DNA of 31,080 nt from an uncultured bacterium (GTDB lineage Bacteria; Desulfobacterota; Desulfobacteria; Desulfobacterales; JAHEIW01): the NCBI GenBank assembly GCA_965370395.1, contig CBDUUO010000001.1:1-31080 (forward strand), read 5' to 3'. Below, piece after piece: positions 685 to 31,073 of this stretch. The notes beneath the pieces are model-generated. The model did not search any database and was not told where the DNA came from. It saw only the letters and a list, made by a program, of their open reading frames with translations. A program made the position numbers and the translations under genes. Numbering within the stretch: position 1 is the stretch's first letter; every line of letters begins with the position of its first letter.

Positions 685-734
685 TTTTTAGTTATTTGCC
701 TTAAATACCGAATTTTCACCTCCACCTTCGCCTT

Positions 735-5165: not shown

Positions 5166-5231
5166 ACCGTCTTACTCCTTTGGGTAATCATAATTTGACT
5201 TTGATACTTGAACAGACAGAGATGATCAGCG

Positions 5232-5260
5232 TTCGCAATTCACGCCGGTGAAAGCGCGAA
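5232..5260 (-). other. Hairpin/palindrome at the predicted hdrL transcription start
   Basis: Minus strand TTCGC-GCT-TTCAC-CGGC-GTGAA-TT-GCGAA, starting about 7 nt below the predicted -10. Confidence 0.45.
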
Positions 5261-5266
5261 GGAGCG

Positions 5267-5295
5267 AACTTACTTATTTTAATTCATTTTGTCAA
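5267..5295 (-). promoter_or_regulatory. Sigma-70 promoter of hdrL-mvhD
   Basis: Minus strand TTGACA-17 nt-TAAGTT, about 100 nt upstream of ATG 5165. Confidence 0.65.
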
Positions 5296-5507
5296 CCGAT
5301 ATTTGCACTAACCTCGCCTTGTTCAACGCTGGATTGCGATACCTGTTTGCCCGCTTTGCAATCAAAAATACGCTTGAAACCGACTCCTGTGCGTGATAGG
5401 TTTTTGAGCTTATGCAAGCAGGTGTCATTCCACACTGTGAACGAGATCAGTATTTACACCCAGCATCCATTCGTGCCTTTTGGATGCTTTATTAGGAATC
5501 ATTCATC

Positions 5508-7085
5508 ATGCCAGAACAACAGCGTTCAATCATTAACATCGGTCTGGTGGGCGGCGGGGACTTTTGCAAGGAAATCCTTGAAAAAACAACCGCCGTTTAT
5601 GAAGAGGCGGAAATGGTGGCGCCCATAATAGCGGTCGCCGATCCGGATCCTGAAAGTCCCGGCCGGAAACTCGCCAGCAAGCTCGGCCTGTTGACGTTTG
5701 ACGACTACAAGCAACTTTATGACCCAAGATACAGCATTCACCTGATTATTATCCTGACCCCGCAGTCGCAAATTTTTGAAAATATTTTAGATACCCGCCC
5801 CTCCCGCATCAGAATCCTTACTTACCAGGTGTTTCGCATGTTCTGGAAAGCCATCGGTCAGGAAGAACAAAAATTGCGGGAACGAACCAAAGAAATGGAG
5901 ACCATCCTAAACGGTATCGATGACTTTATTCTGGTGATTACCCCGGACATGGAAATTCTGGAGGCCAATGCATCTTTTCTAAACAAAATAGGATACAGCC
6001 ACGATAATGTGATCGGCAAAAAATGCCATGAAATCTACTTCAACCTGGCAGAGCAGTGTAAACCGGAAGAAATAGACTGTCCGTTGCAAGAAGTGGTTCG
6101 CAATAAACGACCCGCAAGAAAAATTCAAACACGCGTGTTGCCCAACGGCGAAAACCGCTATTACGAGGTCAACATCTACCCCATCTGGGAAAAACACGGC
6201 AAGGTCTCAAAATTCATCCACATCAGCCGGGATATTACGCAACACAAAAGGGAAGAAGCAGAAATTACCCGTCGCCTGGAACAAATGGTCGAAGAGCGAA
6301 CCCGGCAATTAAAGGAAACTCACAAGAAACTGCTCCACCAGGACAAGATGGCTTCGTTGGGCAAACTTTCCGCTTCAGTGGTCCATGAAATCAACAACCC
6401 CATCGCCGGCATCCTGAATTTGATTATGCTGATGGAACGCATCGTTGAAGAAGATACCATCGGCACCAAGGAAATCGATCAATTCAGCCGGTACCTGGCG
6501 CTAATGGAAACCGAAACGCGGCGCACCAGCCGGATTGTATCCAATCTTTTGGCCTTCTCGCGTCAATCCAAAATGGAGCTCAAACTAATCAGCCTGAATC
6601 GGCTGATTGAACAGACACTGTTTTTAAACTCCAATCTGCTCAAAATAGATGGGGTAAAAGTGGAAACCGATCTTGACCCGGACCTGCCGGATATGGTCGG
6701 CTCTGAGGACCAGCTGCAGCAGGTGTTCATGAACCTGGTTTCGAATGCCGCGGAAGCCATGGAATCCAAAGACGGCGGTCGTCTGCGCATTGAAACCCGG
6801 CACTCGTTGCGCGACGATAAACTGCTGGTCGCTTTTAAAGACACCGGCATCGGCATCCCGGAAGCAAATTTATCGAAGCTTTTTGAACCGTTTTTTACCA
6901 CCAAAAAGAAAGGCAAAGGCGTGGGGCTGGGCCTTTCGGTGGCCTATGGCATCATCCAGGAACACGGCGGTTCCATCTATGTAAAATCCAAGGTGGAAAA
7001 AGGCACAACGTTTAACGTCAGGTTTCCTTTAAAACCGGCCTCAGACAAACTTGACCCGCATGGAGGTTTCAGTGAGCAATATTAA
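5508..7085 (+). CDS. Cytoplasmic sensor histidine kinase: N-terminal Rossmann-like (Gfo/Idh/MocA-like) domain, PAS, HisKA, HATPase_c
   Basis: INIGLVGGGDFC...IAVADPD...HLIIILTP N-terminus. PAS with GKKCH..C..CP. H-box VVHEINNPIAGI, N-box NLVSNAAEAM, DTGIGI, FFTTK, GVGLGL. No obvious TM helix. Confidence 0.9.
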   Translation: MPEQQRSIINIGLVGGGDFCKEILEKTTAVYEEAEMVAPIIAVADPDPESPGRKLASKLGLLTFDDYKQLYDPRYSIHLIIILTPQSQIFENILDTRPSRIRILTYQVFRMFWKAIGQEEQKLRERTKEMETILNGIDDFILVITPDMEILEANASFLNKIGYSHDNVIGKKCHEIYFNLAEQCKPEEIDCPLQEVVRNKRPARKIQTRVLPNGENRYYEVNIYPIWEKHGKVSKFIHISRDITQHKREEAEITRRLEQMVEERTRQLKETHKKLLHQDKMASLGKLSASVVHEINNPIAGILNLIMLMERIVEEDTIGTKEIDQFSRYLALMETETRRTSRIVSNLLAFSRQSKMELKLISLNRLIEQTLFLNSNLLKIDGVKVETDLDPDLPDMVGSEDQLQQVFMNLVSNAAEAMESKDGGRLRIETRHSLRDDKLLVAFKDTGIGIPEANLSKLFEPFFTTKKKGKGVGLGLSVAYGIIQEHGGSIYVKSKVEKGTTFNVRFPLKPASDKLDPHGGFSEQY

Positions 7086-8409
7086 GATTCTGATTGTGGA
7101 TGATGAATTGATCATGCGCGAATCTCTAGCCGGCTGGCTGGAACGTGACGGACATACCGTGCAGACCGCCGCCAGCGGCGAAGAGGCTTTAGCGAAAATA
7201 AAAGAAACTCAGTTTAACATTTTCCTGGTGGATATCAAAATGGAGGGCATGAGCGGTCTGGACGTTTTGCGCAGCGTCAAAGAAAGCGACCCCGATGCTG
7301 AAGTCGTCATGATCACTGCCTACGGCTCCATTCCATCGGCCATCGAGGCCATGAAAGACGGCGCCTATGACTACATGCTCAAGCCGTTTGATCCCAATGA
7401 ACTGGGGGTGTTGATCGAAAAAATTATCCGCTACCAGGAACAGGCGCGAGAAAATATATATCTAAAGGAGCAATACAAGGAACGCACCCGTTTCGAGAGT
7501 ATGATCGGTCAGTCCAGACCCATGCAGGAAATATTTGACCTCATTTGCGACGTGGCCCCCATGGATTCAACCGTGCTGATCACCGGTGAGACCGGCACCG
7601 GGAAAGGTCTGGCCGCCAAGGCCATTCACACCAACAGTTCCCGTCGGGAAGGACCCTTTGTGACCGTCAACTGTGGCTCCATTCCGGAGCATCTGATGGA
7701 AAGTGAATTATTCGGCCATCAGAAAGGCGCGTTCACCGATGCCAAAGAAACCAAAAAAGGCCGTCTGGAAATGACCCACGGCGGCACCTTGTTTTTGGAC
7801 GAGATCGGTGAAATCAGCATGCGGATGCAAATTGATCTATTGCGGGTGCTGGAAGATCGCGTGTTTTACCGCGTGGGGGGTACCCAGCCCATTGAACCCG
7901 ATTTCAGGGTCATTGCCGCCACCAATCGAAATCTTGAAGCAGCCATCAAAGCGGGCGCATTTCGTGAAGACTTATTTTACCGCTTAAACGTCATTTCATT
8001 TATAATGCCCCCTTTAAATCAACGCAAGGAAGACATTCCGCTACTGGCAGAGCATTTTCTTTATCGTTTTTCCCAGGAGACCAACAAACCGACTGATAAA
8101 ATCAGTCGCGAAGCCATGGACGAAATGATGCTATATGACTGGCCGGGGAATATTCGGGAACTGGAAAATGCTATCGAACGTGCAGTTGTTGTGGGCAAGC
8201 AACGCGAAATTCTACCCGAAGATCTGCCGATTTTCTGCCATGAACCCGCACTGGCAACAAGAGCCAATTCTCTTAAAGAAGTGGAAAAGGCCCATATTCA
8301 GCAAGTGCTCATCGAAAATCAAGGGAACATTGCCAAAAGCGCGAAAATCCTGGGAATTGATCGTTCCACCCTCTATAGCAAAATCAAACGCTATAATATT
8401 GACAAATAA
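7072..8409 (+). CDS. Sigma-54-dependent response regulator (NtrC family: REC, AAA+, HTH)
   Basis: GTG 7072 after a GGAGG SD (preferred over 7051). ILIVDDE, VDIKMEG, GETGTGK, ESELFGH, GAFTDA, LFLDEIGE, WPGNIRELEN and C-terminal LGIDRSTLYSK. Confidence 0.93.
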   Translation: MSNIKILIVDDELIMRESLAGWLERDGHTVQTAASGEEALAKIKETQFNIFLVDIKMEGMSGLDVLRSVKESDPDAEVVMITAYGSIPSAIEAMKDGAYDYMLKPFDPNELGVLIEKIIRYQEQARENIYLKEQYKERTRFESMIGQSRPMQEIFDLICDVAPMDSTVLITGETGTGKGLAAKAIHTNSSRREGPFVTVNCGSIPEHLMESELFGHQKGAFTDAKETKKGRLEMTHGGTLFLDEIGEISMRMQIDLLRVLEDRVFYRVGGTQPIEPDFRVIAATNRNLEAAIKAGAFREDLFYRLNVISFIMPPLNQRKEDIPLLAEHFLYRFSQETNKPTDKISREAMDEMMLYDWPGNIRELENAIERAVVVGKQREILPEDLPIFCHEPALATRANSLKEVEKAHIQQVLIENQGNIAKSAKILGIDRSTLYSKIKRYNIDK

Positions 8410-8410
8410 C

Positions 8411-8968
8411 TTGACGCCTCAACCCGCAAATAGAATCATCATCTCACCCATCGGAGACTTTACACCCGATTTATTGGACCCGATCAGAGACGAGATAAAA
8501 CGGATTTACGGATATCCAACAGAAGTCCTGCCCCTTCTGGATGACCTTGAGTTTGCGTTTCATCCCAATCGAAATCAATATCATTCCACCCCTGTTTTGG
8601 AACAATTAGCGCTTAAAGCACCTGCCGACGCTATAAAGGTGCTGGCCCTGGTTCAGGTGGATCTGTTCATCCCGATTTTAACCCATGTTTACGGAGAGGC
8701 CCAGCTTGGCGGTATGGCCTGCATTGTGTCCACCATTCGGCTCAATGAGGGCCACAGCGCCTTAAGCACTCAGGAACCGTTTTTCAGTCGCATTGTCAAG
8801 GAGGCCATCCACGAACTGGGCCATACCTTTAAATTGCGCCATTGCCGGGAACATACCTGCCTGATGCATTACTGCCGCAATGAGAGCGATGTGGATCGCA
8901 AATCGGATCAACTGTGCCGCTATTGCAAGGTTCTACTGGACGATGAGATAAAAAGGCTGGTGAAATAA
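8411..8968 (+). CDS. Archaemetzincin-family (peptidase M54-like) zinc metalloprotease
   Basis: HELGHTFKLRH-C-x4-C-x-M...CRYC and DLFIPILTHVYGEAQL. Start placed at TTG 8411, just after the regulator stop. The start is uncertain because the frame is open from 8135 inside the regulator gene. Confidence 0.85.
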   Translation: MTPQPANRIIISPIGDFTPDLLDPIRDEIKRIYGYPTEVLPLLDDLEFAFHPNRNQYHSTPVLEQLALKAPADAIKVLALVQVDLFIPILTHVYGEAQLGGMACIVSTIRLNEGHSALSTQEPFFSRIVKEAIHELGHTFKLRHCREHTCLMHYCRNESDVDRKSDQLCRYCKVLLDDEIKRLVK

Positions 8969-9010
8969 GTTCTCACCAGCCAATAAGGAAGATGGTTGTC
9001 CAAAGAGAAG

Positions 9011-9937
9011 CTAGGATCTCAAAAACACCCGGGTAATTTGTTGCCAGCCGATCTGGGGCATATGCCCGAAAATGTCATTACTCAGATAGCCGCCGTCGGT
9101 GGCCAGCGGCCCGGCGGTTTCCTCGATTACCTGGTAGAGACGATCAACCTCTGCATCGATAAATTCACCGGCCTGAGCACCGATCATCAAGCTTTTAAGG
9201 TCTTGGCGAAGGTTGGAGCAGTGCAGCCGCAAAATCCATCCTTCACTGTATGGATCTTCATCGGCCCGGCTGCCGCGTTCGCGCAACTCCGGATTAATAT
9301 CGGTTACCACCCCGCTGACCGGTGAAAGCAGTCTGGCATTGTTTCCCTCGCGATCTAAGGCGATATCGGGCCGATCCTGTTCCATCTGTTTGCCCATCAA
9401 AGGTGCTTGAATTTGATCCAGCGGTCCCAGCAGGCGCATGGCAAAGTCATCCAAGCCGACTCGAACCGTCGAACCTTCCTCGATTTTTACCCAGGTATGT
9501 CCCGGATGCAGGTAAAATCCATGAGGGATTTTAAAACCCTTGATATCCAGGACATCCACCGGCTGAACCACGGCGTGCACGGCAAACTGATCACTGAAAT
9601 ATTGATCGAATTCGCAATTGCCGCACTGGTAGTCACGGGTGCAGGCGCGAAACTCAATGTGGCCGATCATATGATGCAAACAGGGCTGTTTCCATACCGG
9701 CAACTCCCGTAATTTGTCCTTCCAGAAAACAATGCGTCCACGCTTTCCTCTCGGGATCTTGACGTTTTCTTTGAGATGCAGGTTCTCGGAGGCAACACGC
9801 TGCATGGCCCTGTCATAGGCACAGGCCGCGCACTGGAAGTCAATCCAACAAAACTTTTTAGGAACCACGCCCGCCTGCATCCAGATACAAGGATGCTCAT
9901 TATTGGCAGCTTGATTTCTTGCTTGCTTCGAGTTCAT
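9011..9937 (-). CDS. GcvH-like fold protein B without lipoyl Lys, with two N-terminal Cys4 motifs, 308 aa
   Basis: VRVGLDDFA..LLG, LLSPVSG, DPYSEGW form the H-protein signature. G occupies the lipoyl-K position (DREGNNARLLSPV). AAGGA SD. Confidence 0.85.
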   Translation of the reverse strand: MNSKQARNQAANNEHPCIWMQAGVVPKKFCWIDFQCAACAYDRAMQRVASENLHLKENVKIPRGKRGRIVFWKDKLRELPVWKQPCLHHMIGHIEFRACTRDYQCGNCEFDQYFSDQFAVHAVVQPVDVLDIKGFKIPHGFYLHPGHTWVKIEEGSTVRVGLDDFAMRLLGPLDQIQAPLMGKQMEQDRPDIALDREGNNARLLSPVSGVVTDINPELRERGSRADEDPYSEGWILRLHCSNLRQDLKSLMIGAQAGEFIDAEVDRLYQVIEETAGPLATDGGYLSNDIFGHMPQIGWQQITRVFLRS

Positions 9938-10011
9938 AGTGAGTCCTTGGTGCCCCAGTTAATAGTTATTCGTTATTTGTTAATAGAAAAGGGCTAATAA
10001 CGAATAACGAA

Positions 10012-11010
10012 CTAGGTTTTCAGAAACTTTTGGGTTAAATTCTTCCAGCCCAGATCCGGAAGATTCCCGTAAATGTCATCAGCCAGATAACCGCCATCGG
10101 CCGCCAGGGGACCGGCAATTTCCTCGATCATGGTTTCCAGATGGTTGACTTCCTCGTTTATCCAGCTCAGGCCGTCCTGATCCACCATCAATTTTTTCAT
10201 GGTGCCTTTAATATCCGGCGTCCGAACCATAAAAAGCCACCCGTCTCCGTAAGGTTCATTATTGGCCAGTTTCGGATTTTCCCTGACCTTCGAATTCACT
10301 TCCATGATGACGCCATCTACCGGCGAAAGTACATCGGCCAGGTTATCTTTACGCTTCAGCCCCCAGCCCGCTTTGCTCTGATCCAATTCCTTACCGATCA
10401 ACGGCAGATCGAGAGCATCGGCCTGGCCCAGCACTTTCAGCGCAAAGTCATCCAATCCCACCCGAATATAACCGCCGCTTTCGATTCTGGCCCAGGCATG
10501 TCCATTATGGAAATAGTATCCCATGGGGACATCGAAACCCTTAACCTGCTGTATTTCACTGGGGAATGCTTTGGCTTTTGTGGTCCAGACATCTTCAAAA
10601 TACTGATCAAAGTCACATTTGCCGCATTCATAATCATACGCACACATCCGCTTTTCAATGCGGTCGGTAAGGCTGTGGCGGCAGGCCCGATCCAGATCCG
10701 GTCGTCTCTTCATGGCTGCCTGCCAGCTGATCTGTTTGCCTTTGGCGACTTTCTGATCCATGGCATGATCGTATTTACAGCGGGTGCAATCATAATAATT
10801 GTCACAATTTTTGAATTTTACCACCCCGGCCTGCATCCAAAGACAGGGAGTCGCTGCTTTGGCTTTCTTGTCCGGTTTGACCAGCCAGACCTGGCCGCCG
10901 AGAACAGATTCAATCTCTTGCTGCGCTTTGCCGTCACCAGCTTTGCCTTTTTGGTAAGTCGATCCGAATCCGACCTGGCTCCTCTGTGCCTTTTTCTTCT
11001 TTTCAGCCAT
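10012..11010 (-). CDS. GcvH-like fold protein A without lipoyl Lys, with two N-terminal Cys4 motifs, 332 aa
   Basis: IRVGLDDFA..VLG, VLSPVDG, EPYGDGW. D occupies the lipoyl-K position (KRKDNLADVLSPV). Paralog of 9011..9937. AAGGAG SD. Confidence 0.85.
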   Translation of the reverse strand: MAEKKKKAQRSQVGFGSTYQKGKAGDGKAQQEIESVLGGQVWLVKPDKKAKAATPCLWMQAGVVKFKNCDNYYDCTRCKYDHAMDQKVAKGKQISWQAAMKRRPDLDRACRHSLTDRIEKRMCAYDYECGKCDFDQYFEDVWTTKAKAFPSEIQQVKGFDVPMGYYFHNGHAWARIESGGYIRVGLDDFALKVLGQADALDLPLIGKELDQSKAGWGLKRKDNLADVLSPVDGVIMEVNSKVRENPKLANNEPYGDGWLFMVRTPDIKGTMKKLMVDQDGLSWINEEVNHLETMIEEIAGPLAADGGYLADDIYGNLPDLGWKNLTQKFLKT

Positions 11011-15330: not shown

Positions 15331-15486
15331 ACACCCGCACAGGTTGATTTCTCTTTGGCAGAAACGTTGGAAAACTGCCTGCAGAAAATTAAAGATTTTG
15401 AAATCGAAGATCTTTTCCCCAAAAAAGAATGATGACGCGCGCCTTGCGTTTTCATATTCCAATTCGCACATCTTGTTTATCGTCAA

Positions 15487-15627
15487 TCAACAGTTGCAGC
15501 CCTTCTCAAAGGCCTCCTCAAAGGCTTCAGCCGGGGCGCCGTAACTGGCCGAAACTCCCAGGCGACCAACGTTGATTCCCGTTTGCCCCAAATTGGCAGT
15601 CTTAAATGAATCCACAGCAGATTTCAC
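15487..15627 (-). pseudogene. Truncated aldo/keto reductase N-terminal remnant (about 42-46 aa)
   Basis: VKSAVDSFKTANLGQTGINVGRLGVSASYGAPAEAFEEAFEKGCNC-TGA resembles the AKR first strand/helix pattern (LGxTGxxVxxLG...A...G.N). It is absent from the ORF track, and resemblance stops at the TGA. Confidence 0.7.
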
Positions 15628-15635
15628 CTTCCGTA

Positions 15636-16067
15636 CTATTTTATGATTTTAGTGATTTTGGGCTGGTATGCATTCTTTTTGGCCATTTTATTGGCCCGGG
15701 CTTTGATGATAAACAGCGCGGTGAAAAAGAAGGCAAATCCCAACAGGACAGATAACGCAGAGGGACTAAATCCTATAAGGGGGGCCAGCACCTGCCCGAG
15801 TGCAGCGCCAACGATCAGCAGGATAATGGGAAAGACGTAAATCAAAAAGGTGGCTTTTAACAATGCGGCGGTCTCAAACCTCAAAACGATCCGATCCCCG
15901 ACTCTGGCGCCGGCCGAATTTACGGCCTTAACCTCCATATCCCGGCCGCCTCCCATGGTGTGGCAGGATCCCTTTGCGGTGCAGCCTTCACAGTCGCTGC
16001 TCCGAACGGTTTTTACCCAGGCGGCCCCAGAATCGGTCCGCAGCACGATCCCTTGTTCAGTAGCCAA
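15636..16067 (-). CDS. rseC: RseC/MucC-family membrane protein (SoxR-reducing system RseC-like)
   Basis: CEGCTAKGSC motif, VGDRIV, two hydrophobic TM segments. TTG start with GAGG SD. Confidence 0.85.
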   Translation of the reverse strand: MATEQGIVLRTDSGAAWVKTVRSSDCEGCTAKGSCHTMGGGRDMEVKAVNSAGARVGDRIVLRFETAALLKATFLIYVFPIILLIVGAALGQVLAPLIGFSPSALSVLLGFAFFFTALFIIKARANKMAKKNAYQPKITKIIK

Positions 16068-16187
16068 TGGTGACCTCGCAAGTAAAGAATTCTGGCCCAG
16101 AGGAACTAGTTTTCAAGGTTAGAATAAATGGGCGCTTTTGATTAAAAATTTGGCCTGCGCTCATGAATCGAAATCAGCGGATGAATT

Positions 16188-18290
16188 TTACCCGGAAGCT
16201 TCAGACGATTCTTCCTTTTGATCAGCCGGCGCCGTGTCTGTGTGCTCATAGCAGATCAATCCGCATTGCAGGCATCTTGAAGCTTCTTTCTGCGCCATAT
16301 CTGCTGAGAAGCCCCTTTCGATCTCACCGCATATCGCCAGCTCTTTGCCGCTGCAAATCGGCATGATCTGGCGCTGACTCGCCTGCACGTTTTCCACATG
16401 ATAGACATTTTGCAGGACCGATTGCGGTGCGATCACATGCTCCGTTAAATTAGGGGATAGCCCATGCATCACCTCATGAATAGATGCAGCTGCCCGACGG
16501 CCGGCACCGATTGCTTTGATGGCTGCGCTGTAATCCGCAAGCACATCACCTTCGGCAAACAATCCCACCTCATCTTTGAAGGCCGGTTGTTTGTAAGGTT
16601 GAATACCTTCCCAGTGCATAGACAAATTCGGTGGTGATTCCACGCCTTCGGCGTCTTCAGATTCAGCACCTTCCGGTTTTGGCCTGACAAAAACCAATTC
16701 AGGAAATCGGCCGGCGGCGAACACCAGTGTCTGAGCCGGTATGACTGTCCTTTTATAGGTATCGGCTTCAATATATTCCACCTGTTCGAGCCGATCAGTC
16801 TCTCCCAAAAGGCGGTTTATGGCTGCATGATAAATCACATTCATGCCTGTCAGACCGCGTTTTTGCACCTCCTCATCCGAAACGGGACTGTTTTCCCAGC
16901 TCTCTCGGAACAAAACGGTGATGGTCGTAGCTCCCAGTCCCTTGCAAACTTTAGCTGCATCAAGCGCCAGCTTGCCCCCGCCGGCAATCACAACATCGGA
17001 CTCAATCGATAGGGCCCCCGTCTGCCGGGCTCCGAATCGAATGAGATCCACCAGCATATAGGTTCCGGGAATCGATGATTCGATATCAACGGTCGCCCCG
17101 CGTACCAGACGGCTGTCCCAGCCTCCGGAAGCCAAAAAAACCGCATCAAATCCTTCCTGAATCAGTGATTTTATGGTGAAATCCCTGCCGAGGGTCTTTT
17201 GAGTTTCGACCTTAACGCCCATTTCAATGATGCCTTCAATATCCCAATCCAGTATCTCCTCGGGCAGCCTATCCTTTGAAATTGCGCTCCTGAGCAACCC
17301 GCCCAGTTTGGGGGTGGCTTCAAATACGGTTGTATCGTGTCCCAGGCGGGCCGTAAAAAACGCGGTTGACAAACCTTGCACGCCGCCGCCGACAACCGCA
17401 ATTTTGCGGCCGGTATCCGGAGCCTTATAGGGTAGAATGCGGTTGCCGCTTTCTTTTTCATAATCTGCAGCGTAGCGCTTCAAAAAATTTATGGCAACCG
17501 GCTCATCAATATAATTTCGGCGGCACTCCAGTTCACATGGCCGAGGGCAAATCCGGCCAATCACAGCTGGAAAGGGATTGCGTTCCTTGATGACCTGAAC
17601 GGCGCGATGATTGTTTCCCAGCGAAATTTGACGAATGTATTCCCGAATATTAATCCCTGCCGGGCATGCCCGCTGGCAGGGGGTCGTGCATTCTTCAGTG
17701 GTGTACTCCCGCATAATCCTTCGGGTAATCGATGACAGGTTAATAATATGCTTCGGGCACACCCGTTCGCAGGCTCCGCAGCCGGTACATTTATTTTCGC
17801 TAACCACCGGCAAACCTTGCGGCCCCATGGTAATCGCATCAAACGGACAGGCCCTGGCGCAAGTCCCCAGACCCAGGCATCCGATGGTGCATACCTTCAT
17901 GCCGCCACCCAGAAGTGCCACCGCCCGGCAGTCATCTAAACCATTATACACATATTTCGTATGCGCTTTCTGGACACCAAAATAACAGCCCGGCAAGGCG
18001 ATGTCCGGTTCAACCGCTTCGATTTTAACGCCCATAATGCTGGCAATGGCTTCGGCCACTTCCGGCCCGGCAGCCACACATGAGTTTGGTGCCGAAAGAC
18101 CGGCCACAACGGCCTCGGCATTGGCGCTGCAACCCGGCAGCCCGCAACCGCCTCAGTTGACACCGGGCAATTCTTCTTCAACTGCCAGGATTTTGGGGTC
18201 AACATATACGTAAAAAACTTTGGAGGCGATGGCCAAAATGATACTGATCATCAATCCCATGCCGCCCATTAATATGATTGCGTCAACCAT
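16188..18290 (-). CDS. RnfB-domain :: GltD/NfnB-like FAD oxidoreductase fusion, putative selenoprotein (U46), 700 aa
   Basis: ATG 18290 with GAGGT SD. TM helix MVDAIILMGGMGLMISIILAIASKVFYVYVDPK, then LPGVN-TGA-GGCGLPGC (the RnfB LPGxNCGxCGxPGC motif; TGA 18153-18155), CTIGCLGLGTC..CP, CTGCGACERVCP, CQRACPAG, CPRPCELECRR, GGGVQG and CLQCGLIC. Confidence 0.88.
18126..18141 (-). promoter_or_regulatory. Putative bacterial SECIS hairpin of the rnfB fusion
   Basis: 11 nt after the UGA: GCUGC-CGGGUU-GCAGC, a perfect 5-bp stem with the loop 16 nt from the UGA and G at loop position 2. Confidence 0.65.
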
Positions 18291-18323
18291 TAGAGTACCT
18301 CAGGAAATCAAATTTCAAGTGAT

Positions 18324-20111
18324 CTAAAATATGGCGTCGAATTTACACTTATTAAAACAGGTCATGCATTTGATGCACTTTTCCTTGTCAATAAAGGCAA
18401 CTTCTTTCTTTTTCCAGGTAATCGCTTCCACCGGACAGCTTCGGAAGCAAAGTCCGCATTTGGTACACATTTCCGGCTCCACCTCGAATTTTAAAAGCTC
18501 AATACAGCGTTTGGCTGGACATCGTTTTTCATAAACATGGGCTTCATATTCATCCTTAAAATACCGTAAGGTCGAAAGAACCGGATTGGGTCCGGTCTGA
18601 CCCAAACCACAAAGAGCCGCTTCTTTAATCGTGTCTGAAAGTTCCTCCAAGGTCTCAATATCTTCAGGTGTTCCCCGACCTTCGCAGATTTTTTCGAGCA
18701 GCTGTAAAAGACGCCGCGTGCCCTCTCGGCAGGGTGTGCACTTGCCGCAGGATTCGTCCTGGACAAAATCCATAAAAAACCGGGCCATATCGACCATGCA
18801 GGTATTTTCGTCCATCACGATGGCCCCGCCGGAACCCATAATGGCGCCCACTTTGGCAATTTCCTCATAGTCAATAGGAATATCCAGCTTTTCTTCGGGT
18901 ACGCAACCGCCCGAAGGCCCGCCAAGCTGAACGGCTTTAAATTTTTTCTTATTCGGGACCCCGCCGCCGATATCATAAATCATGGTTCTCAGGCTGGTGC
19001 CCATCGGCACTTCAACCAATCCGATGTTGTTGACATCTCCGGAAAGCGCAAACACTTTTGTTCCCTTGCTGCTTTCGGTACCGACACTGGCATACCATTT
19101 CCCGCCGTTCATGATAATCTGCGAAATGTTGGCCAGGGTTTCGACATTATTTAAAATGGTCGGTTTTTCCCATAAACCTTTGTGGGCCGGAAACGGCGGC
19201 CGCGGGCGCGGCATGCCGCGTTTGCCTTCAATCGATCTCATCAGTGCGGTCTCTTCGCCGCAAACGAACGCACCGGCGCCCTGGTAAATGTCAATGTCGA
19301 AGTCAAAGCCGGTTCCCAGGATATCTGTTCCTAGCAGCCCGTACTCTCGGGCCTGTTTAATGGCAATTCCCAATCTTCTGATGGCCAGCGGATATTCTGT
19401 TCGCGCGTAAATGTATCCCTGATGGGCATTGATCGCCCGGGCGGCAATCAGCATGCCTTCTAGAACAGCATGCGGATCAGCCTCCAGTATGCTCCGATCC
19501 ATGAAAGCACCCGGGTCGCCTTCGTCCGCATTGCACAAAACATATTTGATCTCGCCGGGACTCTTGCCGGCAAATTCCCATTTCAATCCGGTCGGAAAAC
19601 CGGCTCCGCCGCGCCCCCTTAAGCCCGACGTTTTTACCTCTGCGATGATCTGTTCCGGACTCATCTCCTGCAAGGCTTTGGCGGCTCCGAAATAACCGTC
19701 TCTGGCAATGTACTCATCGATGACCTCCGGATCGATGGCCCCCTTGTTGCGCATTGCCCAGAACACCTGGTGCTTGAAAAAGGGAATTTCGTTCATATTG
19801 GGAATGGTTTCTTTAGAGGCCGGTTCGACGTAGAATAGTTTTTTTACAGGACGGCCTTTGAGAAAATGCTCCTCGACGAGGTGAGGAACGTCTTTGGTTC
19901 TCAGTTTCTGGTAAAAGATACCTTCGGGCTGCACCAGCATAACCGGCCCGACAGCGCAAAAGCCATTGCAGCCGGTTTCAATAATTTTAATTTCATCAGA
20001 AAGCTCTCGGCGTTCCAGCTCTTTTTGAAGCGCTTCCTGAAACACGCCACTCCCACTTGCTTGACAGCCTGTACCACCGCACAACATCAACTGAGTTCTT
20101 ACCTTATTCAT
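18324..20111 (-). CDS. NuoF/HydB-like NADH-binding FMN Fe-S subunit, 595 aa
   Basis: N-terminal CGGTGC..GCNGFC [2Fe-2S], [57 protein letters not shown] and two C-terminal [4Fe-4S]. ATG 20111 has an AGGAG SD. Confidence 0.92.
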
Positions 20112-20131
20112 GCTGGACTCCTGCATGAGAT

Positions 20132-20280
20132 GATTGACTATTTTCGATTGACGATTGAATATTTAAGGATTTCAGCCTAATTGAAAATTTACTATTGAAT
20201 GGATAATGTTTAACCGAAAGCTTTAAAAATAAAATGATAGAATTCCTCCAATCATCAATTATCAATAGTCAATATTCAAT
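20132..20280. repeat. Heptamer-periodic imperfect inverted repeat between nuoE-like and nuoF-like genes
   Basis: GATTGAC-TATTTTC-GATTGAC-GATTGAA-TATTTAA-GGA ... TCC-AATCATC-AATTATC-AATAGTC-AATATTC-AAT. Confidence 0.85.
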
Positions 20281-20346
20281 TAACCCTATTGCCATGATCT
20301 AATATGTTTTTAATCTCAGATAATTTCATGTTGGTTAAAACGTTCT

Positions 20347-20841
20347 CTATTCGTACTTATTAAGGGTTTCAATGACTTTGTCGGCTTTGACAGCACCGTA
20401 AGTATCCTGATCCACCACCACAACAGGCGCCAGTCCGCAGGCCCCCAGACATCGAACGGTTTCCAGAGAAAAACGCCGATCTTCGGTGGTGCATCCTTCT
20501 TTCACCTGGTATTCGTTGCCGATACGGCTGATCACTTCTTTAATGCCCTTCACATAGCAGGCGGTGCCCATGCATACCTTGATCAAATGCCGGCCTTTGG
20601 GTGTCAGGTAAAAAAGTGAATAAAAGGAAGCAATTCCGAAAACCTCGCTGCGGGAAAGATTGAGGCCGTCGCTGATATAGTCAATCAACTCAACCGGCAG
20701 CCAGCCGACGACATCCTGGCATTCCCGTAAAACACCAATAATCGAGCCTGGAATGTCTTTGTTGTCGTCAATGATCTCATCAATCTTAGACCACATTTCA
20801 TTTGTAATATCGGAATGTTCAGGATAGGCGTCAAGTGCCAT
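20347..20841 (-). CDS. NuoE/HydC-like [2Fe-2S] subunit
   Basis: VCMGTACYVKG and VRCLGACGLAPV. GAGG SD. Confidence 0.92.
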   Translation of the reverse strand: MALDAYPEHSDITNEMWSKIDEIIDDNKDIPGSIIGVLRECQDVVGWLPVELIDYISDGLNLSRSEVFGIASFYSLFYLTPKGRHLIKVCMGTACYVKGIKEVISRIGNEYQVKEGCTTEDRRFSLETVRCLGACGLAPVVVVDQDTYGAVKADKVIETLNKYE

Positions 20842-27011: not shown

Positions 27012-27365
27012 ATGAGACTCTCAGAAATTATAGATACGCTGGATGCGACACTCCTGATTGGAGAAGATAACCTGGACCAGGACATTACGACTTGCGGCGC
27101 CAGTGATTTGATGAGCGATATCCTGGCCGCAGTTTGTGAAGGCTGTATCCTATTAACCGGTTTGGCAACGGTCCAGGTGATACGGACAGCCATCATAGCC
27201 GGGGTCGGGGCGGTGGTATTTGTCAGGGGCAAAAAGCCTCCCCGGGAGGTGGTCGAAATGGCCGGAGCCCAGGGGCTACCGTTAATATCGAGCCCCTATT
27301 CCATGTTTGTCTCCTGCGGCAGACTGCACGCCTGTAATATTACAGGGCTTGATGGACAACGATAA
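27012..27365 (+). CDS. Stand-alone DRTGG-domain protein 1
   Basis: GASDLMSDILA..LLTGL..QVIRTA...AVVFVRGKKP pattern. Confidence 0.8.
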   Translation: MRLSEIIDTLDATLLIGEDNLDQDITTCGASDLMSDILAAVCEGCILLTGLATVQVIRTAIIAGVGAVVFVRGKKPPREVVEMAGAQGLPLISSPYSMFVSCGRLHACNITGLDGQR

Positions 27366-27408
27366 CCGATCATTCACAATCTGACTCTACAGTAAATTTC
27401 AAGCGACG

Positions 27409-27849
27409 ATGTCTAGATTCAAAAAAAGCTTTCATATAAAAGGTAGAGATTTTATCCGCGCCGGAGAGGCCGCGATCAACGTTCAAAATCTTCTCAAGTC
27501 GATGGATTTTGATTCCCGCTTGGTTCGGCGAATCGCCATCTGCGGCTATGAAAGCGAAATGAATGTGGTCATGCACGGCGGCGATGGTTCCTTGAGCATT
27601 GAGGTCGACACGGACAAGCTGATTTTAGAAATATCAGATGATGGCCCCGGCATCGAAGATATTGAACTGGCCATGCAGACCGGTTACTCGACAGCCAACG
27701 ACGATCACCGTGAAATGGGTTTCGGAGCCGGTATGGGCCTGCCGAATATGAAAAAAAATTCAGACCAGATCCAGATTGAGTCAAAAAAAGACCAGGGAAC
27801 CGTGGTTCGAATGTTTTTTTTTCTGCCTGAGGGAGTGAAAACAGATTGA
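27409..27849 (+). CDS. RsbT/RsbW-like anti-sigma Ser/Thr kinase (GHKL)
   Basis: YESEMNVVMHG, DDGPGI, GYST, GFGAGMGLPNMKK, GT.V. Confidence 0.85.
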   Translation: MSRFKKSFHIKGRDFIRAGEAAINVQNLLKSMDFDSRLVRRIAICGYESEMNVVMHGGDGSLSIEVDTDKLILEISDDGPGIEDIELAMQTGYSTANDDHREMGFGAGMGLPNMKKNSDQIQIESKKDQGTVVRMFFFLPEGVKTD

Positions 27850-29156
27850 GTCAAAAACAAACATCAACCTATTTTGTCCGTTTTGACCAAGACCTCTGCG
27901 CCGGCCATGGCTCATGTCTGCGGGTCTGCCCCACCAAAGCCATCCGCCTTAAACACAAAAAGGCCATCCGCATCGTGGAACAGTGCATCGGCTGCGGCGA
28001 ATGCATTCGCTCCTGTCGTGAAGGCGCAATCAGTGCAGCCACCGAAGGCCCCGAAGTGCTGGGGAAAGATCATGTGTCCATCGCCCTGGTTTCACCGGTG
28101 CTCTATGCGCAGTTTCCCGGTGTGATGCCCAAAGACGTCCTGCTGGGTCTCCGGCATATGGGATTTCAGCACACTATCGACATGTCTTATTTTCTTGAAA
28201 TATTTCAATTTGCGACCGAAGAATTTATCAGTCGCAACCGAAAATCCCAAATGGCCCCCTGGCCCCTGATTTCACCGGTCTGTCCGGTGGTAGTGCGACT
28301 CATCGCTTTTCAATTTCCCAACCTTTTACCCAACGTCTTGCCGGTATTAAGGCCGGTGGCCCTCATGGCCCGCGAAGTCAAATCGCGTCTGATTCCCGAA
28401 TACATCGAAAAGGGAAAAGAGGTTGTCCTGTATTACATCAACCCCTGCCCGACCAAAAAAGATCCAGCATGCTTGCCCTCCCGCAAACGACCGGTGCCCA
28501 CTGAAATCGCCCTGGGAATTAACGATATATATCCTGAACTCATTAAATATGTGGATCAGATTAAAGCGGCTGACGGCATTCCTTTTTATGAAACCCGTTT
28601 TGAATACGAAACATGTGCAACCGCTAACGCGTCCATGTGGGGAATGTCCGGTGGTGAAATCGCCGACATGGATATTGATAAATCTCTGGCTGTTTCAGGC
28701 ATGGAGGAAACCATCAGCTATCTTGAGAAAATCGAAATGGGGTTGTTTCAGGATATTGAATATATCGAATTTAGAACCTGCCGCGAAGGCTGTTTAGGTG
28801 GTGTGCTGACCGCTATAGACAAATATCTTGCCAAAAGCGCCGTTCAAAAGATGATCAAAAGGTTTGGACTCGGAAGACGTCTGCACCGTGAAAACATTCT
28901 GCGGATGTATGAAAAAGGAGAATTTCAAACCGAAAAAAAACCTTCTAAATTGACCAGTTTATTCGGCGCTCACAAAGAAGCCCTGTCTCTGGACTCCATG
29001 CAGAAAATTGAAAAGGTCATGGACCTCATCCAAGGGACAGACTGCACGGCATGTGGTGCTCCGAACTGCCGGACGTTTGCTGAAGATGTGGTCCGGGGAG
29101 ATGCCGCCTTGAAGGAATGTCTTTTTGTCGGTGCGCAAAAAAAGAAGAAGGGTTGA
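27846..29156 (+). CDS. [FeFe]-hydrogenase-like (non-canonical, probably sensory) Fe-S protein with N-terminal ferredoxin and C-terminal FeS domain
   Basis: CAGHGSCLRVCP and CIGCGECIRSC. Degenerate H-cluster motifs SPVCP, NPCPTKK and FRTCREGCLGG. C-terminal DCTACGAPNC..C. TTG start overlapping the upstream TGA. Confidence 0.8.
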   Translation: MSQKQTSTYFVRFDQDLCAGHGSCLRVCPTKAIRLKHKKAIRIVEQCIGCGECIRSCREGAISAATEGPEVLGKDHVSIALVSPVLYAQFPGVMPKDVLLGLRHMGFQHTIDMSYFLEIFQFATEEFISRNRKSQMAPWPLISPVCPVVVRLIAFQFPNLLPNVLPVLRPVALMAREVKSRLIPEYIEKGKEVVLYYINPCPTKKDPACLPSRKRPVPTEIALGINDIYPELIKYVDQIKAADGIPFYETRFEYETCATANASMWGMSGGEIADMDIDKSLAVSGMEETISYLEKIEMGLFQDIEYIEFRTCREGCLGGVLTAIDKYLAKSAVQKMIKRFGLGRRLHRENILRMYEKGEFQTEKKPSKLTSLFGAHKEALSLDSMQKIEKVMDLIQGTDCTACGAPNCRTFAEDVVRGDAALKECLFVGAQKKKKG

Positions 29157-29209
29157 TCCGCTTTATTGACAAACCTATTTGGACAGCCGGCTGGAAAGGA
29201 TATTGACAG

Positions 29210-29548
29210 TTGTTGGTAAAAGATCTGGTGGAAAAATTCGACCTATCAGTAGCTGCCGGGAAAAATGGACTGGATCGCGAGATCATGGACGGTTACTGCG
29301 GTGATTTGTTAAGCGAAATTATGGGCAACGCGCCGGCAGGGTGTGCCTGGATGACCGTTCAGGGGCATCAGAACATTGTCGCGGTGGCCGTGCTGCGTGA
29401 AATGGCCGCTATCATTATCACCGGTGGTCAAAAGCCGGATGAGGAAACCATCCAGAAGGCGGATCAGGAAGGCATTCCCATTTTATTGTGGCCAAACTCA
29501 TCCTTTAGCCTGGCCGGCCGCATTTTTAGCGCCGGCGTCGGAACTTAG
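29210..29548 (+). CDS. Stand-alone DRTGG-domain protein 2
   Basis: GYCGDLLSEIMG..AWMTVQGHQNIVAVA..AAIIITGG. TTG start after GGAAAGGA. Confidence 0.82.
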   Translation: MLVKDLVEKFDLSVAAGKNGLDREIMDGYCGDLLSEIMGNAPAGCAWMTVQGHQNIVAVAVLREMAAIIITGGQKPDEETIQKADQEGIPILLWPNSSFSLAGRIFSAGVGT

Positions 29549-29735
29549 TTCGCTTCGCTCACAATTGGAATGATGGAAAGATGGAATACTGGAATATTGG
29601 GTCTGTAATCCAAACACTGAAGTTATGCGTTTTTGACCATTATTCCATTATGCCATTATTCCATGTAGGCGGCATAAAACCAGTGTCGTTAAAAGCTACA
29701 CACTTTCAATATGTTATATAATTTCCGAGACGTTG
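29544..29735. repeat. Octamer-periodic inverted repeat with head and tail sequences
   Basis: GGAATGAT-GGAAAGAT-GGAATACT-GGAATATT-GGGTC (29567-29603) / GACC-ATTATTCC-ATTATGCC-ATTATTCC (29635-29662). Head CTTAGTTCGCTTCGCTCACAATT. The right boundary is approximate. Confidence 0.8.
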
Positions 29736-29751
29736 ATTAAGGAATCAACCG

Positions 29752-30498
29752 TTGTTAAAAAAATTTAAAGCCGACCTCCACATTCACTCATGCCTTTCAC
29801 CCTGCAGCGACTGGGATATGAGCCCCAAAAAAATTGTCGAGAAAAGTCTTGAACGGCAGCTCGATTTAATCGCTATCTGTGACCACAATACAGCCGAGAA
29901 CGCTGCGGCAGTCTTACGGGAGGGAACCCGGCAGGGTGTTGCGGTTTTGGCGGGGATGGAAATCTGTTCCAGAGAAGAAGTGCACCTCGTGACCCTTTTT
30001 AAAAAAATTGAAGGCGCTCTGAAAATGCAGGAATTTATTTACGCCCATCTGCCCGGGAAAAATCAACCGGAAGTATTCGGGCATCAGGTCGTCGCAGATG
30101 AGCACGACCAGGTCCTGGGAGAAAATCCCCGCCTGCTGATCGGTGCCACACAGCTCAGTTTGCTCGAAATTGTCGAAAAGGCCCATCATCTCGGCGGCAT
30201 CTGCATCAGTGCCCATGTCGACCGCCCGTCTTACAGTCTGATTGGCCAGCTTGGGTTTATCCCTGAGGATTTACATTTGGACGCCGTGGAGGTTTCTTAT
30301 CGGGTGCCCCTTGATAAAGCCCTAACCGAGGTGCCGGGCATAAAGAACTATCCCTGCGTGACCTCTTCGGACGCTCATTTTTTACGCGACATTGGAAAAG
30401 TGTGGACGGAATTTATTTTAGCGGCCCCCACCCTGCAAGAAATTCGTCTGGCACTGACCGGCACCGAAGGGCGCAGGATTCTAAACGATACAGGATGA
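29752..30498 (+). CDS. PHP-domain phosphoesterase
   Basis: DLHIHS, ICDHN, GMEI, EEVH, SAHVDR, SSDAH. TTG start. Confidence 0.9.
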   Translation: MLKKFKADLHIHSCLSPCSDWDMSPKKIVEKSLERQLDLIAICDHNTAENAAAVLREGTRQGVAVLAGMEICSREEVHLVTLFKKIEGALKMQEFIYAHLPGKNQPEVFGHQVVADEHDQVLGENPRLLIGATQLSLLEIVEKAHHLGGICISAHVDRPSYSLIGQLGFIPEDLHLDAVEVSYRVPLDKALTEVPGIKNYPCVTSSDAHFLRDIGKVWTEFILAAPTLQEIRLALTGTEGRRILNDTG

Positions 30499-30515
30499 TA
30501 CAAGATTTTGTGTAA

Positions 30516-31073
30516 ATGCGAGAGTTATCTTTACATATTTTAGATGTGGTTGAAAACGGAATTACCGCCGGCGGGAATTGCATCTGGATTGAAGTTGAAG
30601 AAGCCCGTAAAAAGGATCAGTTAAAAATTGTGATTCGCGACAATGGCCGTGGAATGCCGGTCGAAAAAATGAAAAATATCAACGATCCTTTTATCACTTC
30701 CCGAACCACTCGCAGAGTCGGCCTGGGACTTTCACTGTTAGCCGCTGCGGCCGAGCGATGTGATGGGACCCTGCGCGTCGACAGCCAACCCGGTAAAGGG
30801 ACTGAAGTTGCGGCCACATTTCGTTATCATCATATCGACCGCGCGCCCCTTGGCGATATGGCGGCGACGGTTACCACCTTAATTATCGGCAACCCGGGAA
30901 TTGATTTTGTCTATTGCCATCGCATTGATGGTAAAGATTTCAGCCTGGATACCCGGGAGATCCGCACCGAAATGGAAGATCTTTCCCTGTCCGATCCGGT
31001 GGTCATTCACCATTTAACCGAATCCATCCGTTCTGCGCTCAAAGCGCTGGCGAAAAATGAAGGCGTATCTTAA
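30516..31073 (+). CDS. Stand-alone HATPase_c (GHKL) kinase-like protein without HisKA domain
   Basis: MRELSLHILDVVEN, DNGRGM, DPF.TSRTTRRVGLGL, PGKGT, HIDRAPLGD. Confidence 0.88.
   Translation: MRELSLHILDVVENGITAGGNCIWIEVEEARKKDQLKIVIRDNGRGMPVEKMKNINDPFITSRTTRRVGLGLSLLAAAAERCDGTLRVDSQPGKGTEVAATFRYHHIDRAPLGDMAATVTTLIIGNPGIDFVYCHRIDGKDFSLDTREIRTEMEDLSLSDPVVIHHLTESIRSALKALAKNEGVS

Follow-up and report, generated by a model that had tools for sequence, protein, structure and literature searches.

The locus and its genes

The window analysed here is a 31,080-nucleotide stretch of DNA, contig C1 of the metagenome-assembled genome (MAG) of an uncultured member of the Desulfobacterales (GCA_965370395.1), which is 86% complete and distributed over 832 contigs. 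At positions 15636–20841 it carries four genes, all on the minus strand, for a NuoE-like and a NuoF-like protein, a fusion of RnfB to a GltD-like flavoprotein (hereafter referred to as L2) and RseC. A preliminary description of the window had reported four co-directional genes at this locus and the lack of any hydA, fdhA, nuoG or rnfACDEG gene in the operon, and our analysis agrees on both counts, as all four genes lie where they had been placed and the domain search found none of the named genes within the operon. The genes are separated by spacers of 220 nt (nuoE to nuoF), 33 nt (nuoF to L2) and 120 nt (L2 to rseC), and the operon ends after rseC because the next gene, encoding HU, lies on the opposite strand. 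An Rfam search of the window gave no match, and promoter and terminator scans of the window stayed at background level. The features on which the analysis relies are the following:

20347–20841, minus strand: nuoE/hydC-like gene (BfuC), thioredoxin-like [2Fe-2S] subunit of 164 aa (PF01257, 3.6e-45; NCBIfam HoxE/NuoE matches)
20127–20346, minus strand: intergenic gap of 220 nt between nuoE and nuoF, apparent remnant of a deleted 117-aa DRTGG gene (from comparison with relatives)
18324–20126, minus strand: nuoF/hydB-like gene (BfuB), flavin mononucleotide (FMN)/NADH subunit of 600 aa (Pfam Complex1_51K and NADH_4Fe-4S; solved HydB relatives)
16188–18290, minus strand: rnfB::gltD fusion L2, predicted selenoprotein of 700 aa (translation with TGA as U; Pfam, NCBIfam and Protein Data Bank (PDB) matches)
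18153–18155, minus strand: in-frame TGA, read as selenocysteine (Sec) 46 (TGA/Cys codon pairing across loci)
18126–18141, minus strand: candidate selenocysteine insertion sequence (SECIS) hairpin GCUGC-CGGGUU-GCAGC, 14 nt past the UGA, with a stem of 5 bp
16890–16985, minus strand: remodelled second Rossmann (pyridine-nucleotide) site of L2, GGGKLA...FRES (orthologue alignment)
16248–16349, minus strand: C-terminal segment of L2, residues ~648–681, ...EASRCLQCGLICY, matching NfnB/GltD residues 17–47
15636–16067, minus strand: rseC, 143 aa, N-terminal C-x2-C-x5-C domain followed by 2 predicted transmembrane (TM) helices (PF04246, 7.6e-35)

NuoE and NuoF as a bifurcating-type core

The NuoEF pair of the cassette is best read as a bifurcating (Bfu) core of the HydBC/StnAB type and not as a complex I pair. 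The NuoF-like protein contains the Pfam domains Complex1_51K (3.4e-47) and NADH_4Fe-4S (2e-36), corresponding to the FMN/NADH domain and the B1 [4Fe-4S] cluster, and adds to them an N-terminal PF01257-like domain of the 2Fe-2S type (residues 10–86) and a C-terminal 2x[4Fe-4S] dicluster (residues 547–599). These additional domains represent the B2 site and the B3/B4 clusters, which are absent from non-bifurcating NuoF. The nearest solved relatives are bifurcating HydB (7t2r_B, 4e-258), 7q4v_B, NfnB and StnB, with values ranging to 5e-212, and the protein aligns with A. mobile HydB over its full length with zero gaps. Its A207 and M209 share columns with A202 and M204 of A. mobile HydB, which have been described as Bfu-specific residues near the FMN/NADH (PMC9304861), while for the third such residue, F182 (PMC9304861), no Phe was found at the number given. 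The NuoE-like protein has, in its PF01257 match, the [2Fe-2S] thioredoxin-like fold by which BfuC is recognised. The genome also encodes a separate, true complex I (nuoEFGH) on contig C151.

Pfam detected none of the NuoG-like domains (Fer2_4, NADH-G_4Fe-4S_3, Fer4_Nqo3) in L2 or in the rest of the operon; such domains occur elsewhere in the genome on contigs C43, C151, C243 and C323. The order nuoE-(DRTGG)-nuoF-L2 parallels hydC-(hydD)-hydB-hydA and therefore puts L2 in the BfuA slot. Bfu enzymes that consist of a BfuBC core without BfuA have been classed as Type 4, of which only a rubrerythrin type has been named (Schut et al., PMC9304861), and the cassette appears to be a BfuA-less (“Type 4”-like) variant of this kind. 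As in the predicted Rub-Bfu of that class (PMC9304861), the BfuBC core is followed by an unrelated subunit replacing BfuA; unlike in Rub-Bfu, the replacing subunit is a membrane-anchored RnfB::flavoprotein. The main text of the Bfu paper draws no link between Rnf and Bfu, the word “Rnf” occurring only in its reference list (PMC9304861). The earlier statement that the operon has no catalytic subunit is thus correct for the genes that it named, but it is misleading in that L2 occupies the BfuA position and the Type 4 category has been published (PMC9304861).

The sole hydrogenase-type gene in the window encodes a homologue of the sensory hydrogenase HydS and lies 7 kb from the operon. It was considered as a catalytic partner and rejected on account of its sensory-type architecture, its distance and its location on the other strand. 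Elsewhere in the same genome (G000), contig C43 (L116) carries at 722–10132 a cluster encoding a MetF-like protein, an FDH/NuoG-like protein (909 aa), NuoE (157 aa), a NuoF::GltD fusion (1043 aa), a MetV-like protein (DUF5981) and MetF. This cluster looks like a Bfu-type module tied to methylene-tetrahydrofolate reductase, and would be a candidate bifurcating form of that enzyme in the Wood-Ljungdahl pathway.

Architecture and paralogy of L2

The L2 frame opens at an ATG 33 nt past the nuoF stop and yields 700 aa if its sole interruption, the TGA at 18153–18155, is read through; it is usually called as a 639-aa protein from an internal GTG. The protein comprises a TM helix, an iron-sulfur (FeS) domain (PF04060, residues 41–72), a ferredoxin dicluster (137–184), a Fer4_20 domain (201–281) and a Pyr_redox_2 part (296–538), the last being a two-Rossmann flavoprotein in which the motifs for flavin adenine dinucleotide (FAD) are retained. 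The fusion of an RnfB TM anchor and Fe-S domains with a GltD/NfnB-like FAD domain that the preliminary description had proposed is therefore borne out. By the usual sequence criteria L2 is a genuine RnfB: it scores 81.6 bits against TIGR01944 rnfB in NCBIfam (cut-off 68.7) and 39.5 bits against PF04060 (cut-off 23), and residues 1–193 match the solved RnfB chains 7zc6_B and 9eri_B at ~1e-50 (7zc6_B at 1.1e-51 over residues 5–193). A predicted structure of an orthologue places the TM helix at residues 2–25.

Residues 195–681 find their top PDB matches in NfnA (9n5u_A, 9bov_A) and StnC (8oh5_C), and a fold search with the predicted orthologue structure likewise puts the flavoprotein part nearest to NfnA/StnC. 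The C-terminal segment includes the motif RCLQCGLICY, which is at least 90% conserved among orthologues, and from its match to NfnB/GltD it can be identified as the circularly permuted N-terminal (first) segment of the GltD/NfnB Fer4_20 domain. We asked whether this Cys motif could hold a cluster at which NuoF docks and rejected the idea, as the motif represents the permuted first strand of Fer4_20.

The genome paper of Desulfococcus multivorans notes, for the Desulfobacula toluolica Tol2-type Rnf (Rnf2), a “large RnfB” of ~700 aa with an NAD-binding module and an RnfC without the NADH domain (PMC5109826). In relatives of the window's genome, a second RnfB of ~700 aa is found in or beside an operon of the form radical-SAM - cytochrome c - rnfCDGEA. 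We refer to this rnf-operon large RnfB as L1, to the window type as L2 and to a third type as L3. L1 and L2 are colinear, 37% identical and have in common the juxtamembrane motif ASKxFYVYxDP, and the permuted C-terminal CxxC piece is found in both of them as well as in NfnA and StnC. Identity over the N-terminal 200 residues is bimodal, at 59% or more within L2 as opposed to 42–55% to L1 and short RnfBs, and the two form separate clades, so that L2 is a paralogue of L1 and not its orthologue.

The second Rossmann site distinguishes the two paralogues. In an alignment of 77 L2 orthologues and L1 paralogues, L1 keeps the signature GGGNTAID...YRRTRxEMPA, while L2 orthologues conserve GGgklal...lfRE and are unconserved in the segment beyond, so that the NADPH motif is replaced in all L2 orthologues aligned. 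In the flavoprotein-domain tree all L2 sequences form one clade, sister to L3; L1 groups with NADPH-type modules, and a long branch, with the usual caveat that attaches to long branches, parts both L2 and L3 from L1. L2 has probably given up NADPH, and as it lacks the NADPH signature, NuoF is the obvious candidate to supply the nucleotide site.

The L3 protein comes from the chromosome of genome G001 (L134, 4395–12610, minus strand), where an operon encodes L3 (695 aa, 43% identical to L2 and without a second GxGxxA motif), a NuoG-like::NuoE fusion (972 aa) and a NuoF::GltD fusion (1012 aa). The pairing of a large RnfB with a Bfu module thus recurs independently in the L3 operon.

Predicted selenocysteine in L2

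The in-frame TGA corresponds to the first ligand position of the N-terminal C-x2-C-x4-C...C Fe-S motif of RnfB (in L2, LPGVN-U-GGCGLPGC). The corresponding codon is TGA in 28 of 80 orthologous loci and TGC or TGT in the other 52, the N-terminal TM segment 5' of the codon is conserved in both groups, and a tRNA-Sec is encoded on contig C247 of the same genome. Taken together, the TGA/Cys pairing, the conserved upstream TM segment and the tRNA-Sec support the selenocysteine reading, which had been part of the preliminary description. All Sec-form loci have the candidate SECIS hairpin, but so do close Cys forms; the region is constrained by coding, and covariation was not shown. The reading has a practical consequence for public annotations, since most database entries of the L2 family are cut at the Sec codon to 629–641 aa and thereby lose both the membrane anchor and the first cluster ligand.

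Conservation of the cassette and the DRTGG gene

Of the 80 Desulfobacterales loci with enough flanking sequence, nearly all keep the gene order, which is far beyond chance, and most have a nuoE-like gene upstream of nuoF. The carriers include a cultured organism, Desulfatitalea alkaliphila M08but (L092). The synteny survey that the preliminary description had proposed is thus positive for the order nuoE-nuoF-L2-rseC across the Desulfobacterales. Other loci have 33–220 nt between nuoF and L2. The gene order persists where identity is as low as 58%, and it extends to other families of the phylum. Among 151 Desulfobacterales genomes, orthologues of L2 are found in ~110, L1 in 104 and genes of the RnfA/E family in 145; beyond the order, an L2-like gene occurs in 7 of ~195 genomes of the phylum. 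The flanking genes MTAP, amidohydrolase, PilZ and Tag are also syntenic across the order. In four loci DRTGG-L2-rseC is present without nuoEF.

In most relatives a 117-aa DRTGG open reading frame lies between nuoE and nuoF, so that the ancestral cassette would be nuoE-DRTGG-nuoF-L2-rseC. There is no open reading frame at this position in the window, and short stretches of the 220-nt gap match the flanks and the 3' end of the DRTGG gene in L017. From this comparison the window appears to have lost the DRTGG gene of the cassette. The sole homologue of the lost gene (54% identity) is the first DRTGG gene of a separate regulatory cassette, at 27012–27365 of the window.

That cassette spans 27012–31073 and has the order DRTGG - HATPase - HydS-like (Fe_hyd_lg_C with a C-terminal RnfB-type FeS domain) - DRTGG - PHP - HATPase. 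It may regulate the nuoEF-L2-rseC cassette.

RseC

The RseC protein of the operon matches PF04246 with 120.1 bits (cut-off 24.4) over profile positions 1–129 of 130. The nearest NCBIfam model, “SoxR-reducing system protein RseC”, gives 46 bits, far below its cut-off of 184. An rseC gene follows L2 in 67 of the 80 loci, including loci that are without nuoEF, and in five relatives the best RseC copy of the genome is the one that adjoins L2. The C-x2-C-x5-C motif is invariant among L2-adjacent copies.

In 4 of the 67 rseC genes next to L2 (L029 at ~9205–9630, L057, L060 and L076), the second Cys of C-x2-C is replaced by an in-frame TGA. These forms are candidate selenocysteine-containing RseC proteins, for which a literature search found no paper. 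Taken with the invariance of the Cys motif, they suggest that C-x2-C-x5-C may be a redox or metal site. The window's genome encodes a second RseC paralogue on contig C504 (L131, 1922–2383), 34% identical, which sits beside a Metal_resist heavy-metal-resistance gene and has no RnfB link.

The RseC of E. coli has a genetic link to Rsx, a complex of the Rnf type. The association of an RseC-family protein with an Rnf-type system is thus common to E. coli RsxABCDGE with RseC and to the arrangement proposed here. Unlike the E. coli system, the cassette has no SoxR context, and its rseC is in one operon with an RnfB paralogue.

Proposed link to the Rnf2 core

The RnfC of the window's own genome has a degenerate, sub-threshold Complex1_51K NADH/FMN domain, which marks its Rnf as the Rnf2 type. 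The rnf genes of this genome are split at contig ends, with rnfA stopping 6 nt from the end of its contig, and the assembly contains no L1 or second RnfB; genomes of the same genus carry an L1 of their own. In eight genomes from four families (G126/G082/G011; G098/G137/G037; G101; G078), the radical-SAM - cytochrome - rnfCDGEA operon ends at rnfA. Neither a large-RnfB homologue in the operon flanks nor an L1 orthologue in the assembly was found for any of the eight, and L2 is the only large RnfB found in them. In G078 and G101, whose neighbouring genes were inspected, rnfA is followed by an unrelated gene on the opposite strand. The 6 of 151 genomes without RnfA/E-family genes are all without L2 as well, and two of these six belong to families whose other members have both RnfA/E and L2.

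Proposed mechanism

We consider it about an even chance that the cassette encodes a Type 4-like Bfu core in which an alternative large RnfB, blind to NADPH and containing Sec, serves as the A subunit and docks on the Rnf2 core. In such an assembly NuoF would bind NADH at its FMN, while the extra clusters of NuoF together with NuoE would exchange low-potential electrons with ferredoxin. Electrons would pass between the NuoEF core and a wire within L2 made up of the FAD, the two Fer4_20 clusters, two ferredoxin-type clusters and the membrane-proximal Se/S-ligated cluster, and the RnfB N-terminus of L2 would dock on an RnfA/E-G-D-C-cytochrome c core encoded elsewhere. The L2 head would be an option next to the NADPH-using L1 head, or would take its place in some lineages, with the net effect that the NADH and ferredoxin pools would be coupled to the Rnf2 ion pump and the periplasmic cytochrome. 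From the comparisons given above we infer that NuoEF associates with L2 and that L2 docks on Rnf2, and the part assigned to RseC, the direction in which electrons run and the energetics of their transfer are likewise inferred.

A broader and more tentative idea, which we would hold as a possibility for the order as a whole, is that the Rnf2 of Desulfobacterales is a modular ion pump with exchangeable cytoplasmic heads, in which L1 would feed electrons from NADPH and L2/NuoEF would make the complex a confurcating or bifurcating NADH + ferredoxin : cytochrome c oxidoreductase. It would then be the first Bfu-type bifurcating core wired directly into Rnf, with a selenium-ligated entry cluster and with RseC as a head-specific adaptor.

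Alternative explanations

Several observations weigh against docking on Rnf2. L2 lacks a NuoG-like domain, which in all solved Bfu enzymes makes the connection between A and BC, and nowhere in the order surveyed does the cassette adjoin rnfCDGEA. With Rnf present in 145 of 151 genomes, the co-occurrence of L2 with Rnf is weak evidence, and most of the genomes compared are fragmented MAGs. Several of the eight genomes with an rnfB-less Rnf2 operon also hold a short RnfB beside another rnfA/E pair, which is a possible substitute, and genome G113 (97% complete) has L2 together with only an Nqr-type operon, while a genome of the same genus has Rnf2. The adjacency of RseC fits equally well with a self-contained membrane module. 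The idea in the preliminary description that the NADH module docks on an Rnf encoded elsewhere is nevertheless favoured by the rnfB-less Rnf2 operons, by the co-absence of L2 and RnfA/E and by the independent recurrence of a large RnfB with a Bfu module in G001, so that its interpretation is partly supported overall.

The strongest of the other explanations, which we judge rather unlikely, is a self-contained membrane enzyme of NuoEF, L2 and RseC, anchored by the helices of L2 and RseC and working without an Rnf core. By analogy with the Rsx/RseC-dependent reduction of SoxR, electrons from NADH and ferredoxin might in that case run to the Cys/Sec site of RseC and on to an acceptor such as a quinone, a thiol or a regulator. 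Such an enzyme would account for the persistence of rseC behind L2, which extends to the DRTGG-L2 loci where nuoEF is missing, for the location of the best RseC copy, for the invariant Cys motif with its occasional TGA, for the separation of the cassette from rnfCDGEA and for the L2 of G113 without a detected Rnf. It sits less easily with the retention of the whole RnfB N-terminal module, including ASKxFYVYxDP, which a generic anchor would not need, with the rnfB-less Rnf2 operons, which must obtain an RnfB from somewhere, and with the lack of L2 in every genome without RnfA/E; E. coli RseC, moreover, is itself tied to Rsx. The other alternative raised in the preliminary description, a membrane-tethered transhydrogenase of the Stn/NfnABC type in which NADPH would be oxidised at the GltD-like domain and electrons would bifurcate at NuoF to NAD+ and ferredoxin, appears very improbable to us. 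Its subunit set of NuoE, NuoF and a GltD-like flavoprotein is indeed that of StnABC/NfnABC, and the flavoprotein part of L2 is nearest to NfnA/StnC in sequence and fold and has their permuted C-terminal CxxC piece. The replacement of the NADPH motif in all orthologues, with an unconserved segment after it, has however weakened this alternative, and the L2 flavoprotein domain stands on a long branch apart from NADPH-type modules, the NuoG-like bridge of StnC/NfnA is absent, and the retained RnfB cluster module and RseC would be left unexplained.

It is also conceivable, if quite improbable, that NuoEF works with a NuoG-like catalytic subunit encoded elsewhere, either the Sec-FdhA of contig C243 or the NuoG-N::GltD protein of contig C323, and that the adjacency of L2 and RseC is an inherited order. 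The genome does contain an orphan Sec-FdhA with a NuoG-like N-terminus (C243) and an 861-aa NuoG-N+GltD protein (C323) without adjacent NuoEF, and the synteny of the flanking MTAP, amidohydrolase, PilZ and Tag genes means that some of the conserved order is plain inheritance. The 33-nt spacer between nuoF and L2 and an order that is kept across families of the phylum and at identities as low as 58% argue for a closer relationship, as does the G001 operon, where a large RnfB is again paired with NuoEF-type genes independently. In five relatives the FdhA orthologue is encoded far away from the cassette, and the C323-type protein is restricted to the genus and located in a BcrAD/HGD cluster, for which reasons we rejected it as the missing BfuA. 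Neither of the two would account for a cassette that is spread through the whole order.

This 861-aa protein, with NuoG-type N-terminal clusters and a GltD-like flavoprotein, was found only in the window's own genus among the genomes searched, at 1836–4421 of contig C323 (L129) in G000 and at 6937–11439 of L132 in G030, beside two BcrA/D-type ATPases and an HGD-D protein. The Nqr-type operon of G113 (L119, contig C147, 2586–7915) encodes an NqrA-like subunit with a C-terminal 4Fe-4S dicluster, which is an RnfC-like feature.

Comparison with known systems and significance

The closest characterised relatives are StnABC of Sporomusa ovata (8oh5) and NfnABC of Caldicellulosiruptor saccharolyticus (9bov) and Thermococcus sibiricus (9n5u), which like the cassette have NuoE and NuoF subunits of the bifurcating type and whose third subunit contains, as does L2, a GltD/NfnB-like FAD domain with the permuted C-terminal CxxC piece. 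L2 differs in having no NuoG-like domain (clusters A1–A4) and in possessing a full, membrane-anchored RnfB N-terminus; it has lost the NADPH motif and has a predicted Sec ligand, and the operon includes RseC and, ancestrally, DRTGG. The Tol2-type large RnfB known from genomes and proteomes (PMC5109826) is likewise ~700 aa long and colinear with L2 (TM, FeS, 2x[4Fe-4S], Fer4_20, FAD, CxxC). The two are found in the same organisms, and the window's own genome has a matching RnfC. Unlike the Tol2-type protein, L2 is encoded with nuoEF and rseC and not with rnfCDGEA, its NADPH signature is replaced, and it has a predicted Sec in about a third of lineages.

The preliminary description had called the complex undescribed. 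The large RnfB (PMC5109826) and the StnABC/NfnABC structures had in fact been published, while our literature searches found neither a description of the cassette itself nor biochemical data on it. The large RnfB, the Bfu core and the Type 4 category are thus known, and what appears to be new is this particular combination.

Among the sulfate reducers of marine sediments, the Desulfobacterales are the main group of complete oxidisers, and current schemes of how they keep NADH, NADPH, ferredoxin and periplasmic cytochromes in balance still contain question marks. To our knowledge, the Rnf2 complex has never been assayed. If the cassette is the NADH/ferredoxin head of Rnf2, it would name a missing link in the energy conservation of the order and would add an Rnf-coupled, membrane-bound type to the Bfu family, while giving RseC a concrete biochemical context.

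Other features of the window

A short, truncated frame resembling an aldo/keto reductase lies at 15440–15600, between rseC and the HU gene, and looks like a gene remnant. At 735–4856 the window encodes a giant HdrL-like flavoprotein, which is 1316 aa long as called and has its start inside its own Fer4_20 domain; the frame is open over 1416 aa, and the called TTG is probably not the true start, which would lie further upstream.

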